The notes: generated by a model not told the origin, from the sequence alone. DNA of 64,000 nt from an uncultured Phycisphaerales bacterium (GCA_963755915.1 CAVWLP010000002.1:1088001-1152000); one strand, 5' to 3'; numbered from the stretch's first letter, positions 1 through 4,951 are shown. Numbers and translations: made by a program.

Positions 1-970
1 AATCGACCGTATAGGAAACTGGCGAGCATCGCATGCGTTTCTGATGGATATCGCGAACCGGCAGGTCGTGCAGAGCGCAAACGTAATCGACAAGCAAGCG
101 ATCACCGCCCAGCGCCTCAAGCGACTGGAATCAATAGAACTGAAATTGAGGCAGACGAAAATGCGCCTCACCCAAATGCAGGACATCGGAGGCTGCCGGG
201 CCGTGGTTCACAGGGCGCAAAGGGCTCGCGACCTTGCACCGCTGATAGCGACCGCACTTCCGGTTGCCGCGCCGGATCAATTCTCTGTTGTGAGGACGAC
301 AGATTATTTGACTACTCCCAAGCCGGATGGATACCGGGGCATTCACATTGTTGTGGAGTACGACGGCGTTGATGAGGACTATAAAAAATTAAAAGTCGAA
401 ATTCAGGTCAGAAGCAGGCTGCAACACGTCTGGGCAACCTCAGTGGAGATATGCCAATTCTTCACCCAACAACGATTCAAGACGGCCAAAAAAACCGCCG
501 ACGAAAAATGGCTGCGATATTTCGCTCTGGCCTCGTCCTATATGGCACTGCTTGAAAGGCTGCCGACGGTTCCGAATACGCCGGAGGTATTCGAGGACAT
601 CATGGCAGAGATGAAGGCCATAGATTCCGAGACGGGAATCGTCGCGGCTCTTGGGAATTGGAGTCAGCTTGTGCAACCGGGCTTTACCGTTCCGGACGCG
701 TACTTCTACGTTCTGGACCTGAACGGCAAGGATCGCACGATGCGGCTGGAGTCATTTCGGAAAGACGAGCTGAAGCAAGCCGAGGATAAATATCTGGAAC
801 TTGAAAAACACACCGAAGGCAATTTAAGCCGTCAGATTGTTCTTGTTTCCGTTGAATCCATCGACTCTCTGAGGGGCGCGTACCCGAACTATTTTTTCGA
901 CGCAATCCAATTCACGTCTGCCGTTTCCGCATTTAAGACCCCGCGCCTTGTTTCTTCGTACTACGCGTAG
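1..970 (+). CDS. capRel: Fused CapRel-like toxSAS (RelA/SpoT synthetase toxin plus C-terminal antitoxin/sensor domain), 5'-partial
   Basis: The frame is open from position 2 (IDRIGNWRASHAFLMD...). It has RelA_SpoT motifs AQRLKR..SI..KL, MQDIGGCR, DY...PK.DGYRGIH and EIQVRSRLQHVWAT. The C-terminal IVLVS...L..AYPNYFFD matches the YxxY autoinhibitory motif of fused CapRels. Confidence 0.85.
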   Translation, partial: IDRIGNWRASHAFLMDIANRQVVQSANVIDKQAITAQRLKRLESIELKLRQTKMRLTQMQDIGGCRAVVHRAQRARDLAPLIATALPVAAPDQFSVVRTTDYLTTPKPDGYRGIHIVVEYDGVDEDYKKLKVEIQVRSRLQHVWATSVEICQFFTQQRFKTAKKTADEKWLRYFALASSYMALLERLPTVPNTPEVFEDIMAEMKAIDSETGIVAALGNWSQLVQPGFTVPDAYFYVLDLNGKDRTMRLESFRKDELKQAEDKYLELEKHTEGNLSRQIVLVSVESIDSLRGAYPNYFFDAIQFTSAVSAFKTPRLVSSYYA

Positions 971-1130
971 CCGCTGAGCGTTTCCGCCGCCTTTCGTCCG
1001 CAAGGGCTTTATCAATTTTGGCTTTTGGGACCGCCATTATCCGCCGCGTGAAGTCTTCCATTTTGTGAAACGCAGCTTCGGGGTCGGCAACGCGGATATC
1101 GGGGATTTCTTGGGGTTTTGGTTTGGGCAT
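933..1130 (-). CDS. Small basic hypothetical protein of the type often seen downstream of IS1595 transposases
   Basis: 65 aa (…FHKMEDFTRRIMAVPKAKIDKAL…). It is co-oriented with the transposase and has an SD-like GAAGGA before the ATG. Confidence 0.55.
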   Translation of the reverse strand: MPKPKPQEIPDIRVADPEAAFHKMEDFTRRIMAVPKAKIDKALADERRRKRSAATRSTKKQGAGS

Positions 1131-1217
1131 TCCTTCATTGTATCACGAAAGGGAACCGGATTTTGAAAAACGCACGCAACACAAATGGCTGTGACCTAAA
1201 CACCGGCCCGCGCCCCC

Positions 1218-1637
1218 TTACGCCTCGAATTCAGATGAATCTTCAATGTGAAGTATTCGCTCTGCCAGAAGATTCCCGGAAGGCTCGGTTACGGATACGG
1301 GAAATTCTCCGGCACCCGGAAAGCTCACCGATGAGAAAGACGCTACGTACGTCTGGAGCCCCGACGGATAGTGTCCGCCGGGGGTCACCGTAGATTTATA
1401 AAAATGGCTTCCGGCTTGCATCGACACTATCAGTTGCATGGGTTCAAAGAGGTTCTCTAGTTCAATTAGAATGTCGATGCGGGGATATGTCGCCGGGAAC
1501 TTCGGAAAATTGAGGACGCTGAAGACCGCTCGCAGCGAATAGAAGTCGAACCTACCATCCCTTACCGCCTCTTTGCACATGACCATAGCCGCTACGCGAG
1601 GTCGATCTTTACTCATTGGTTCACCCTTGCGAATCAT
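1218..1637 (-). CDS. Hypothetical protein, DUF6941-like beta-rich fold
   Basis: The pattern P.V.AMVMC..AVRD....YSL..VF..L....FPA.YP resembles DUF6941. It abuts the transposase stop codon. The start may be the second Met at 1616. Confidence 0.55.
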   Translation of the reverse strand: MIRKGEPMSKDRPRVAAMVMCKEAVRDGRFDFYSLRAVFSVLNFPKFPATYPRIDILIELENLFEPMQLIVSMQAGSHFYKSTVTPGGHYPSGLQTYVASFSSVSFPGAGEFPVSVTEPSGNLLAERILHIEDSSEFEA

Positions 1638-2663
1638 TCAATTTGGCAGATTTTCTTTTCCCGCGCCGCTCTCGCCGTTTCCGGTAACGGGAGCACCCTC
1701 CAATGCCCCGATGAGGGCCTTGTAGGTCAACCGTTTTCCGTGATAGCGGCTTGCGGCAATCCGGAAACGGTCTGCGTCTTCAACCTCACGATGATTGAAG
1801 CGGAATGCTTCGGAATCGACATATGCGGCAAGGTGGAACGGCTCGACGCTAACGTGTGTTCCCTTGATGCAGCGTTTGAACAGCGCCCAGAAGTTTTCCA
1901 GCCCGTTGGTGTGGACCACTTTGTCCTTTACGTATGCCTCAGTATGATCCACAAAATCATGGTTGAACGTACCGGCGATACTTACGTCGCGATAGTTTTT
2001 CAGGGCGTCGGTATAGAGGGTCGTTCCCGGCTCCACGTTCTTGTGAATGACAGTGAGGAGCGATTCCTTTTTGCGATCCGCCACGACCGCCGTCCGGACG
2101 GTGCTATGTTTCTTGCCATCGTGGCGGTTGAGCAAACCCATGACGTTTGTCATATGAGCGCCACCGCGATTTTTTCCGACCTTACGTTCGCGGACCTTCT
2201 TGTGCATGTTGGCCGCAAGGCCGCCGACCATCGTTTCGTCGGCCTCGACGATACCTTTCATTTTGGAATCGAACGATCCGACGTGGATGGCATGGCGAAC
2301 GCGATGGAGCATGAACCACGCGGATTTTTGGGTAATGCCGAGCGCCCGATGAATCTCGTAACTGCTGATTGAGTTCTTGGCGTTTACTTCGAGCCAAAAC
2401 GCCGCTGCCCATTTGTCCAAGCCAAGTGGAGAGTCTTCCATGACCGATCCTGTTTTCACGGTGAACTGGCGGCTATCGTGGTTTTTGGCACAAGAATACC
2501 GGCGATATTTCGGCATGTAGTGGACTTGCGTTGACCCGCATCGCGGACAGACCGGACCACTCGGCCATCGCATCTTGGCGAAGAAATCGTGGGCAACATC
2601 CAGATCGGAAAAGTGCTTAATGGCTTCTAAAAGCGTTTCCGGAAAGTGGTTTTCAGTGTTCAT
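1638..2663 (-). CDS. IS1595-family DDE transposase
   Basis: N-terminal Zn ribbon (RWPSGPVCPRCGS…C), HTH (ISSYEIHRALGITQKSAWFMLHRVR), and catalytic motifs VEADET, LYTD, HTNGLENFW and Y..E..FRFN.R. Confidence 0.95.
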   Translation of the reverse strand: MNTENHFPETLLEAIKHFSDLDVAHDFFAKMRWPSGPVCPRCGSTQVHYMPKYRRYSCAKNHDSRQFTVKTGSVMEDSPLGLDKWAAAFWLEVNAKNSISSYEIHRALGITQKSAWFMLHRVRHAIHVGSFDSKMKGIVEADETMVGGLAANMHKKVRERKVGKNRGGAHMTNVMGLLNRHDGKKHSTVRTAVVADRKKESLLTVIHKNVEPGTTLYTDALKNYRDVSIAGTFNHDFVDHTEAYVKDKVVHTNGLENFWALFKRCIKGTHVSVEPFHLAAYVDSEAFRFNHREVEDADRFRIAASRYHGKRLTYKALIGALEGAPVTGNGESGAGKENLPN

Positions 2664-2669
2664 GCCGGT

Positions 2670-2698
2670 ATCTTAGGGTCCGGACGTTGTTTTGTCAA
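2670..2698 (-). promoter_or_regulatory. Sigma70 promoter for the transposase (leaderless)
   Basis: TTGACA-17 nt-TAAGAT, then 6 nt to the ATG at 2663. Confidence 0.75.
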
Positions 2699-3008
2699 GT
2701 ATATTATTACCATATATAGAGCAACCCTAAAACACCATGAACCAACGACCCAACCACGCCCAATCCGCGCCGCACCGCGCCGCAATACCAGCGGCCGGGC
2801 CGCGCCAACCAACCAACAAAACCGCTAAACTCCCCCCGTCGCAATCCCCGAAAAATCACGTACACCCCCACCCCCGATTTTTAAAATTCCTCCAACCCGT
2901 CAACGGTAACAAAACCCCCCGCCACAGCGCCCAATCAAAGAGTTCGCCCCCACTAACTTCTTCTGAATTTCACTCCGCTATATACGTTGTCGCAATTAAG
3001 GAATCCCC

Positions 3009-3060
3009 GTGTAGCCGCCCCCGCTTGACTTCGGCGAGCTCAGTCGAGCCGCGGAGCGCG
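3009..3060. repeat. REP-like palindrome (GTAGCCGC…GCGGAGCGC) with a nested CTTCG…GCTCAG mini-repeat
   Basis: GTGTAGCCGCCCCCGCTT[GACTTCGGCGAGCTCAGTCGAGCC]GCGGAGCGCG. Similar sequences lacking the insert lie at 52180 and 63497. Confidence 0.5.
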
Positions 3061-3108
3061 TCTTCGCTCACCCCAAGATCCCCGCTCCTTGTCCAGGCCG
3101 CGATACCC

Positions 3109-4737
3109 TCACACCCGCGCCCGACTATGCTCTTCCAGCCGTTGCAGCAGCTCGCAAGCCTCTTCCTGATGTTCCCCCACGCTGCTCGTCCAGATCAGCG
3201 GCTCATTCCGCAGCACCGCCCGTTCGATCCGCCGGCAGGCGCTGATCACCGTGCTGTGATTCCGCTTCCCCATCCGCATCCCGATTTCCGGAAAGCTCAG
3301 CTTCGCCGTCTTACGCACCAGGAACATCGCCACGCTCCGCGCCAGGCTGATCGTCCTCTGCCGCCGGCCCGACATCAGGTCCTTGTTTTCCAGCCCGAAA
3401 TATTCGCAGACCGATTGAAGGATGTTGTCCGGCCGCACCGGCGCGACCATCTGCCGATCCAGGTCCCCCAGCGCCGCCTGAACCAGCGCCACATCCGGCA
3501 TCTGCCCCGTCACTTTCAAATACGCCGCGATCCGTGTGACCGCCCCTTCCAGCTCCCGAACGTTCTGCGTCACCCGCCGGGCGATCCACCCGATCACTTC
3601 TTCCCCCAGCGAGAGTTCGGCCCGATCCGAAAGGCTGCGCAGAATATCGCACCGCATCGCGAAGTTCGGCGGATCGATCCGGACCACCATCCCGCTCACG
3701 AACCGGTTGATCAGCGATTCCCCGAACGATTCGATCATCTTCGGATGGTTATCGCTCGCCATCACCACCTGCCGCCCCATCGCCTCGATCGCGTTGAACG
3801 TATGCAGGAATTCCTCCTGCGTCGCTTTCTTGCCGCCGAGGAAATGCACGTCGTCGATCACCAGCAGGTCCAGCTCGCGCATCTTCCGCCGGAAAACGTC
3901 GATCTTGCTCGTGCGCAGCGCCGTCAGAAATTCGTTGGTGAATTCCTCCCCGGTCAGATACGACCACCGCCGCGTTGGATGATGCGCTACGAACCGCTTG
4001 CAAAGCCCCTGCAGCAGATGCGTCTTCCCCAGCCCGCACCCGCCGTGGATGAACAGCGGGTTGTACTGAGCCCCGGGAAATTCCGCCACGTGCGTCGCCG
4101 CCGTGAAGGCAAGCTGATTGCTCTGCCCCACGACGAATGTTTCGATGTCATGCCGGAAGCGCGGCCGCCCCGTTTGCGCGGCAATGCCGCTCTCCACCGG
4201 CGGCGAAAATCGCTGCGGCGCTATCGCTGCCGCCGCGCCGAACCGCGGCTCGGGCCCCATCTCTCTTGCCACCAGCGCGGGCGACGAATCATCGGCGCCC
4301 GGCGCCAGACGCGCGCCCAGCTCCGGCGCCGCAATCGCGCGCACCACCGCTTTGGCGCTCTGATTCTGCTTCCCCCCATTCACCGGTTTCGCGGGGGCGC
4401 TGTCGCTGGTTTGAACTTCGAAAAGCTGCGGCACCACGCTGAAGCGAACCGCCAGCGAGCACCCCAGAACTTCATTGGCCGCTTCCTGGATCGGCCGGCT
4501 GAAGTGCGACCCGATCCATTCGCTGATGAAATCGTTCGGGACGGCAATCTCCAGCCCGTCCTGTTTCAGATCCAAACGCGTGGAATTATTGAACCAGACA
4601 TGAAATCGTTGTTGCCCGACTCTTTGTGCGATCGCGCTGGCCAACTTCGCCAGTTGCGGATCATGTGCGCTGATACAGCTCAAACCGACTCCTTCCCGTA
4701 AACCCGGCCCAATCGATGCAGCCCGCACAAACGTCAT
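3109..4737 (-). CDS. dnaA: Chromosomal replication initiator DnaA
   Basis: FVVGQSNQLAF, YNPLFIHGGCGLGKTHLL (Walker A), LLVIDDVHFL (Walker B), NVRELEGA, and domain IV SFPEIG..MGKRNHSTVISAC. The start codon is uncertain. Confidence 0.97.
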   Translation of the reverse strand: MTFVRAASIGPGLREGVGLSCISAHDPQLAKLASAIAQRVGQQRFHVWFNNSTRLDLKQDGLEIAVPNDFISEWIGSHFSRPIQEAANEVLGCSLAVRFSVVPQLFEVQTSDSAPAKPVNGGKQNQSAKAVVRAIAAPELGARLAPGADDSSPALVAREMGPEPRFGAAAAIAPQRFSPPVESGIAAQTGRPRFRHDIETFVVGQSNQLAFTAATHVAEFPGAQYNPLFIHGGCGLGKTHLLQGLCKRFVAHHPTRRWSYLTGEEFTNEFLTALRTSKIDVFRRKMRELDLLVIDDVHFLGGKKATQEEFLHTFNAIEAMGRQVVMASDNHPKMIESFGESLINRFVSGMVVRIDPPNFAMRCDILRSLSDRAELSLGEEVIGWIARRVTQNVRELEGAVTRIAAYLKVTGQMPDVALVQAALGDLDRQMVAPVRPDNILQSVCEYFGLENKDLMSGRRQRTISLARSVAMFLVRKTAKLSFPEIGMRMGKRNHSTVISACRRIERAVLRNEPLIWTSSVGEHQEEACELLQRLEEHSRARV

Positions 4738-4951
4738 AAAGTGCCCGGCGGGCGCAGCATCACCCATCTCCTTTGCCGGCATCCTGCCTGACAGGGCGAA
4801 AACGCAATACTAATCATCCGTGAATTGAACGAGAAAATAAGCTACGCGAACCCTGCTGGCAAGATAATCTTTGCTGGTTTTTCCATGCACAGCGCCGAAA
4901 CCAGCGGTAGGACCTGTACCGTTTGACGTTAAAAAAACTTCTATCAACTTC

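Follow-up and report, generated by a model that had tools for sequence, protein, structure and literature searches.

We found that a fused CapRel-type toxSAS gene next to dnaA in an uncultured Phycisphaerales bacterium is carried as cargo by a small insertion sequence (IS) of the IS1595 family. The stretch of DNA analyzed, here called the window, comprises 64,000 nucleotides of the source genome, G000 (G000:C2:1088001-1152000), and its left edge cuts through the element, which spans window -148..2711 (2,860 bp) when the contig is extended leftwards; positions in the extended locus, L001, are converted to window positions by subtracting 1500. We consider it quite likely that this is a transporter IS composed of a transposase, an accessory open reading frame (ORF) and two passengers, a DUF6941 gene and the CapRel-type toxSAS, the latter acting as a phage-triggered toxin-antitoxin. 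The element and its right-hand neighbor comprise the following features (window coordinates):

-156..-149 (L001 1344-1351): left copy of the 8-bp target-site duplication ATATATAG
-148..-125 (L001 1352-1375): left terminal inverted repeat (IR) GGCAATAATATACTTGACAAAACA, 24 bp, 23/24 identical to the right IR
1..970 (ORF 2..970, open at the left edge), + strand: fused CapRel-type toxSAS gene, last 322 codons and stop
933-1130, - strand: basic ORF of 65 amino acids (aa), its last 38 nt overlapping the 3' end of the CapRel gene
1218-1637, - strand: 139-aa ORF, divergent DUF6941, its ATG abutting the transposase stop (TGAATG)
1638-2663, - strand: IS1595-family DDE transposase, 341 aa, intact; no other copy was found in G000
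2670..2698, - strand: sigma-70-like transposase promoter (TTGACA, 17 nt, TAAGAT; 10/12 consensus), ending 6 nt before the ATG
2688..2711: right terminal IR, 24 bp, the complement of which reads GGTAATAATATACTTGACAAAACA; ends at window 2711
2712..2719: right copy of ATATATAG
3109-4782, - strand: dnaA (Pfam: Bac_DnaA 1.4e-55, with the N-terminal and C-terminal DnaA domains also found)

The borders of the element were computed directly. When the genome was searched with window 1-2800, an inverted 34-nt match located 126-159 nt left of the window was found to pair with window 2688-2721, and the IR and the 8-bp duplication ATATATAG that an earlier note on this DNA had predicted to the left of the window were both found there exactly. 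An 18-nt IR pattern (up to 4 mismatches) matched only the outer ends, with no internal IS end anywhere in L001. Positions 970-1637, between the CapRel gene and the transposase, are thus free of a second IS end, as the same note had proposed when it described a RelA/SpoT-domain ORF converging on a run of transposase, DUF6941-like gene and small basic ORF next to dnaA; all three of these ORFs are indeed on the - strand, and the identity of dnaA is supported by Pfam. In the closest genome of the same genus, G001, whose dnaA DNA is ~95-96% identical to that of G000, the site is empty: both flanks abut with an overlap of exactly 8 nt, and the three-way alignment reads ...CGGACCTATATATAGAGCAACCC... 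with one ATATATAG. The element therefore transposed together with its cargo, of which the CapRel gene is a part and not a neighbor, having inserted as one unit between a LysR-type gene and dnaA, whose 3' ends face each other across the insertion site. The proposal of an IS-borne cargo also agrees with the related genomes, since no conserved synteny without the IS was found and 3/3 full-length homologues among 41 genomes lie inside IS1595-type elements.

The full CapRel ORF codes for 355 aa. Its GTG start lies 97 nt beyond the left edge of the window (L001 1403 = G000:C2:1087903) and is separated from the left IS tip by 51 nt. The recorded gene call (P0002) is a 308-aa form starting at an internal ATG. 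The GTG start is supported by two observations: from residue 3-8 onwards the protein is homologous both to its family and to CapRel(SJ46), the fused CapRel encoded by Salmonella phage SJ46, and homologues in sister elements begin at the same place with ATG. Both motifs by which the ORF had been recognized are present (...IGNWRASHAF... and ...GAYPNYFFDAIQF...), and Pfam detected RelA_SpoT (PF04607) at residues 37-146 of the window fragment (E 2.4e-15). Among PDB sequences, phmmer aligned the protein collinearly with CapRel(SJ46) (7ztb/9erv; E 4.5e-33, residues 8-339 versus chain 15-364), and the next matches were small alarmone synthetases at E 1e-9 or worse, covering residues 69-190 only. The RelA/SpoT gene of phage SJ46 was also matched among phage records (tblastn, 29.9% identity over 94% of the query), as were the PADLOC profile PDC-S33 (E 2.2e-97, profile positions 3-341 of 349) and, over its full length, phrog_4773 of PHROGs (E 2.7e-73). 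With 8,000 candidates scored, at least 3,750 proteins fall into the family at E <= 0.001, and the most similar of them is only 49% identical.

The predicted structure agrees with the sequence matches. The AlphaFold2 (AF2) model, built with 57 homologues, reached a pLDDT of 92.3 and a pTM of 0.90, and its best Foldseek match was 7ztb_B (E 2.6e-22). In the VIA comparison, the model aligned with CapRel(SJ46) from residue 5 to 347 (chain 12-372; Z 25.8, root-mean-square deviation 3.1 Å over 274 residues), whereas the best small alarmone synthetase structure reached Z 14.6 for model residues 34-220 only, and no other PDB entry covered the C-terminal part. The whole-chain alignments of phmmer and VIA support the fusion, in the same chain, of a C-terminal antitoxin domain (a pseudo-zinc-finger domain, pseudo-ZFD), and with this match in both sequence and fold the CapRel-type identity given in the earlier note holds. 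From its sequence and modeled fold, the protein appears to be a remote but typical fused CapRel, with no new kind of immune mechanism.

The phmmer alignment was used to map onto the protein the residues named by Zhang et al. 2022 (PMC9712102). The ATP-coordinating R79 and R116 and the G-loop Y155 of CapRel(SJ46) correspond to R71, R99 and Y144, which are invariant in the 57-sequence family alignment; A77, V338, L339 and A351 correspond to A69, V313, L314 and A326, and the tyrosines of the YXXY plug, Y352 and Y355, to Y327 and Y330. The stretch A326-Y327-P328-N329-Y330 is invariant or at least 90% conserved, as are all mapped residues but A69. Seven of the eight autoinhibition-interface positions whose mutation, according to that paper, made CapRel(SJ46) constitutively toxic are identical. 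The least conserved stretch comprises residues 241-300, with a top-residue frequency of 0.44-0.50 versus 0.85-0.88 in the catalytic blocks. The matching region of CapRel(SJ46) confers phage specificity, as described in PMC9712102, and the low conservation found here would fit the sensor-domain pattern described there. We infer that this variable region may sense planctomycete phages.

By homology, the protein would work as a single-chain toxin-antitoxin whose C-terminal pseudo-zinc-finger keeps the N-terminal RelA/SpoT-type pyrophosphokinase shut, with the YPNY (YXXY) element plugging the ATP site. The enzyme would open once a phage protein binds its variable C-terminal region, and would then pyrophosphorylate the 3' CCA ends of tRNAs, so that translation would stop and the infection would be aborted. 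The enzyme activity, its substrate and the phage trigger are predicted from the characterized relative, and a benefit to the host and to the IS may be presumed.

The carriage of CapRel by this type of element is recurrent. Among the 41 related genomes, CapRel was detected in four at E <= 1e-10. Besides the window, full-length copies were found in G004 (L032/L049) and G005 (L047), all three inside IS1595-type elements, while contig C180 of G022 holds only a partial and weak CapRel-like match of 153 residues. In a wider survey, we took the best 80 CapRel loci across species-representative genomes and looked for the transposase within 6 kb (profile hidden Markov model, E <= 1e-133). Six of the 80 have the transposase of this lineage (two from Tepidisphaeraceae, three from Acidobacteriota and one from Nitrospira), and in five of these six, IR pairs and perfect 8-bp duplications enclose both CapRel and transposase. 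The sixth, L085, has an IR pair as well, at 346 and 2785, which a shorter pattern detected and a 23-nt pattern allowing up to 7 mismatches did not. Two more loci, L054 and L113, show an IR-like end upstream of CapRel and no transposase within 6 kb. In all, 74 of the best 80 lack such a transposase within that distance, and therefore carriage by an IS is one lifestyle of the CapRel family and not its rule. The CapRel-carrying elements span Planctomycetota, Acidobacteriota and Nitrospirota.

In a quick CapRel tree with SH-aLRT support, all ten loci with an IS or an IR-like end (L054 and L113 included) are among the 27 bacterial rows that lie outside a 54-row clade of mostly archaeal and candidate-phyla sequences, and the window CapRel is grouped with that of G004 (SH-aLRT 99). 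Neither the CapRel tree nor the transposase tree keeps the IS-borne copies together, and well-supported branches force at least three changes in each; therefore, cargo is exchanged or lost faster than the transposase diverges. As a side observation, the CapRel-carrying element L080 5856-9067 also contains an HNH-like ORF (HNH_5, 23.9 bits, below the cut-off) and interrupts a host repeat-protein gene, the halves of which lie on both sides.

Sister elements carry other genes in the place of CapRel. Relatives of the transposase were found in 16 of the 41 related genomes at E <= 1e-20 (G000 itself and G014 included), and 20 loci were fetched, with transposases 50-67% identical. An IR pair with the shared core GGnAAnAAnnTACTTGAC was found at 14 of these 20 loci and at two more with a looser threshold; L025, L028, L037 and L042 gave no IR pair. 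The 14 IR-paired elements measure 2,058-3,824 bp (12 with perfect 8-bp duplications, one with 7/8 and one cut by the contig end), and because every element exceeds in length the transposase gene plus the ends, all of them carry passengers. The variable cargo that the earlier note had expected in other IS1595 copies is therefore real and includes recognized defense systems. L024 4453-8072 (G004:C44; 3,620 bp, perfect duplication CCATTTAG) holds a complete PD-Lambda-5 pair (A 3.5e-120, B 4.5e-107), L034 a GmrSD_N/NsnA-like gene, L036 a DUF1828/PDC-M24B gene, and L035 and L040 PIN-domain genes, each preceded by a partner gene that codes for 266-276 aa. L032, from G004, carries a second CapRel of 355 aa (PDC-S33, 4.3e-87). 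Sub-threshold hints of DUF3800, HEPN and Mrr were obtained among the passengers, many of which have no family. A third CapRel-carrying element, L047 (G005:C125, a 4,259-bp contig with masked bases, starting within the IR and breaking off within the transposase), is a three-gene defense islet within an IS: CapRel, a C-5 cytosine methyltransferase (1.6e-59) and a family-less 368-aa ORF, possibly the restriction partner of the methyltransferase, precede the small accessory ORF and the transposase.

Three cargo proteins without a family above threshold recur among the sister elements and are candidates for defense or toxin-antitoxin functions. One is 316-325 aa long (L027 3495-4445, L031 3456-4433); another, of 266-279 aa, is the PIN partner (L035 2116-2946, L040 3640-4440, L039 3669-4508); and the third, of 180-192 aa, gives a sub-threshold HEPN hint (L026 5955-6518, L030 6210-6785, L032 5872-6450, L036 7192-7734). 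In L032 (4432-4454) and L031 (4429-4451), and by its architecture also in L027, a degenerate third IR copy lies just upstream of the transposase. These elements have an extra gene, CapRel or the 316-325-aa unknown, between the third and the outer IR, with the duplication flanking the outer ends, and look like nested or fused elements now moving as one. Regarding the target sites, 11 of 18 duplications start with C and end with G (e.g., CTATTTAG, CAAATTAG, CAAACTAG), which suggests a loose preference for C-6N-G, mostly A/T-rich; the window duplication ATATATAG misfits at its first base.

The terminal repeats might also have a role in expression. The -35 box of the transposase promoter sits within the right IR, and an identical TTGACA in the left IR points inward at the CapRel gene, which starts 51 nt inside the tip; therefore, the IS end probably supplies the CapRel promoter, and, judging from these sequences, the IR would probably do the same for whatever gene fills the adjacent slot. 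The distance from the tip to the CapRel start is also 51 nt in L049, L053 and L051, 54 nt in L065, 67 nt in L054, about 91 nt in L047, 145 nt in L080 and 357 nt in L085. At the other end, the 139-aa ORF is probably cotranscribed with the transposase, because its start directly follows the transposase stop.

Several observations weigh against the interpretation of the element as a mobile carrier of a phage-triggered toxin-antitoxin. We know of no phage for this host. The IS is single copy, and the genome bin has a completeness of 81% and a contamination of 8%, so that present activity of the transposase can only be presumed. The left-end promoter failed the consensus scan and has a weak -10, the only match within an IR being the transposase promoter; the CapRel start is a GTG with no obvious Shine-Dalgarno sequence, and no RNA run is listed for the element, the available contigs being of a kind that cannot reveal transcripts. 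Identity to the characterized CapRel(SJ46) is ~30%, the choice of tRNA over adenine nucleotides as substrate follows this nearest characterized relative, and the placement within CapRel was made by best characterized match and not by phylogeny versus PhRel, FaRel and FaRel2. One of the eight interface residues tested by Zhang et al. 2022 differs (A341 = S316), and the 74 loci mentioned above show that most of the best CapRel matches have no such transposase within 6 kb.

How far do these points favor another explanation? That the IS merely landed beside a resident CapRel gene, the adjacency being due to chance, is hardly credible. IS elements are frequently found near defense genes, and the 74 CapRel loci with no IS1595 transposase within 6 kb would suit this view, but here the gene lies between both IRs, the duplication brackets the whole 2,860 bp, no IR was found directly downstream of the CapRel stop, and seven other elements enclose a CapRel gene likewise; the site in G001, uninterrupted and without CapRel, contradicts chance adjacency. 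We regard as very improbable, too, that the cassette is a silent relic, with a gene intact by chance but unexpressed or nonfunctional. The GTG start without a recognizable ribosome-binding site, the weak left-end -10 and the recorded call of only 308 aa would fit such a relic, yet no stop interrupts the 355 codons, only one of the catalytic and autoinhibition residues is not conserved, and the insertion is younger than the split from G001. Moreover, the spacing between the IS tip and the gene is preserved in homologous elements, and L049 even shares the GTG context.

More weight has to be given to the idea that the protein is a CapRel-like enzyme without an anti-phage role, either a maker of a toxic alarmone ((pp)pApp or ppGpp) or a protein of service to the IS, which might, for example, slow the growth of the host while the element transposes or act as a stabilizing selfish module, although we still judge it unlikely. 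Some toxSAS subfamilies make (pp)pApp instead of modifying tRNA, according to PMC11782079, the subfamily of the present protein is assigned by its best characterized match, and the tight, recurrent link between CapRel and the IS end could reflect a function for the element. However, the nearest characterized relative by both sequence and fold is CapRel(SJ46), described as a phage-triggered tRNA pyrophosphokinase (PMC9712102), and with toxin and antitoxin in one chain classical post-segregational killing would be unworkable. Sister elements hold recognized defense systems in the same slots (PD-Lambda-5 A and B, the GmrSD/NsnA-like gene, PDC-M24B), and the most variable region is the putative sensor domain, as expected at a host-virus interface. 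A transporter IS carrying a phage-triggered CapRel is thus the explanation that we prefer.

The remaining genes of the element are the transposase and the two small ORFs. The transposase was identified by Pfam (DDE_Tnp_IS1595 PF12762, 8.7e-34; Zn_ribbon_IS1595 PF12760, 3.5e-10) and NCBIfam (transpos_IS1595 NF033547, 1e-47). For the 65-aa basic ORF, tblastn found homologues in 8 of the 20 related IS loci, in most cases as the gene that immediately follows the transposase, and more were found by eye. Nine homologues align at 24-59% identity around the core F..RRI..VPK.EID, and a profile search gathered 190 unnamed proteins of ~53-56 aa, with no Pfam, PADLOC, NCBIfam or PHROG match. The ORF is a conserved accessory gene of this IS lineage, not cargo; our guess is that it is a small DNA-binding or regulatory helper.

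The 139-aa ORF, on the other hand, had been called DUF6941-like, and this description is borne out mainly through its relatives. The ORF itself matches DUF6941 (PF22091) at E 0.014 and 16.2 bits, below the 27-bit cut-off, over profile positions 4-110 of 125. An exhaustive search of 1.8 billion representatives found four short relatives (25-48% identity), all four of which exceed the Pfam cut-off (28.9-51 bits), and 27 of 30 feature matches in the ESM Atlas are DUF6941 clusters (score 0.93). A word-index homologue search returned only the ORF itself, no match was obtained in PHROGs, PADLOC or NCBIfam, and tblastn found no homologue in the other 20 IS loci. Two ORFs in the same position, of 127 aa in L029 and 140 aa in L030, are not recognizably DUF6941. 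We infer that the 139-aa ORF is a second passenger, a divergent DUF6941 protein, which may have a role in defense. Separately, 28 stretches of a 3,251-aa protein (P0244) match the last ~29 residues of this ORF, P0244 being either a repeat protein or a translation artifact.

Some features of the flanks are also worth recording. The LysR-type regulator beside the insertion (L001 360-1285; G000:C2:1086860-1087785) is split across two frames, HTH_1 and the first half of LysR_substrate in one and the second half in another, and is either a frameshifted pseudogene or the product of an assembly indel; the DNA alignment with its G001 homologue is unbroken. Between the IS and dnaA there are two short repeated elements (window 2832-2996 and 3004-3065), dozens of copies of which, 75-100% identical, are present in G000, G001 and other genomes of the genus. 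In four soil-metagenome DNA runs from one study, with fragments at ~2-6x, none of the short contigs crossed a junction by at least 31 letters each way, and none was reported to join the flanks without the IS. The 41 nt immediately left of the IS (L001 1311-1351, window -189..-149), which end in ATATATAG, showed a depth spike of 23-56 versus ~2-6 elsewhere in these contigs, with loose ends on both sides; this segment resembles a dispersed repeat and may be a preferred target.

Small IS1595 transposons appear to shuttle defense genes. Going further, and only tentatively, we suggest that this lineage might be a dedicated immunity-gene shuttle, with IRs used as inward promoters, its own ~55-aa accessory protein and slots refilled by recombination between elements, a scenario that we hold to be possible rather than probable. 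If it were true, CapRel, PD-Lambda-5, GmrSD-like, PIN and restriction-modification modules would move among Planctomycetota, Acidobacteriota and Nitrospirota on units of 2-4 kb, and unannotated passengers (DUF6941 and the proteins of 316-325, 266-279 and 187-192 aa) would be new defense genes through guilt by association. The smallest class of transposon would become a vehicle of phage defense, and a promoter within the IR is suggested as the mechanism by which its cargo is expressed. Cataloguing the genes enclosed between GGnAAnAAnnTACTTGAC repeats with an 8-bp duplication should provide candidate defense genes from poorly studied soil phyla, among them DUF6941 and several family-less proteins.

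Among characterized systems, the closest is CapRel(SJ46) (7ZTB, 9ERV; PMC9712102), which belongs to the same length class (373 aa versus 355 aa here), is collinear over the whole protein and shares its fold right through the C-terminal domain. The two proteins have R79, R116, the G-loop tyrosine and the YXXY motif in common, and the variable pseudo-ZFD is the least conserved part. They differ in that they are only ~30% identical, A341 is replaced by Ser here, and the trigger and substrate would be the same only by homology. In addition, CapRel(SJ46) is prophage-borne, while the window CapRel is carried by a chromosomal 2.9-kb IS of a planctomycete-type genome from soil. PADLOC PDC-S33, a computational candidate label, matches the protein over the full length of the profile, as it does the IS-borne homologue of G004 (4.3e-87). 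Neither PDC-S33 nor DUF6941 is named in any paper of the literature searched. CapRel proteins are known to abort phage infection, and to our knowledge the descriptions of the fused type to date concern immunity proteins borne by prophages.

Elements of the IS1595 family that carry passenger genes, called "transporter IS", were reportedly described by Siguier, Gagnevin and Chandler in 2009. The present element resembles them in having one DDE transposase with an N-terminal zinc ribbon, short IRs beginning with GG, an 8-bp duplication and genes unrelated to transposition inside the IRs. It differs in that its passengers, and those of its sisters, are anti-phage or toxin-antitoxin genes that change from one element to the next, and in having a conserved accessory ORF of ~55 aa. 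By its IR sequence, the element might tentatively be placed in the ISNwi1 subgroup. Among plasmid-borne IS1595 transposases, the nearest are <40% identical and annotated only as "IS1595 family transposase". No description of a toxSAS as IS1595 cargo was found in the literature searched, judged from titles and abstract openings (Siguier et al. 2009 may list passengers), and we could not find there the CapRel-IS1595 pairing, its recurrence in three phyla or the wider defense cargo of this IS lineage, which are apparently unreported in that literature.

Larger mobile DNA, including Tn7-like transposons, integron cassettes, prophages and satellites, also transports defense genes, which pass from one element to another. 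Unlike these carriers, the elements presented here are minimal, one-transposase IS of 2-4 kb, with one or two cargo slots and an IR that apparently doubles as a promoter.

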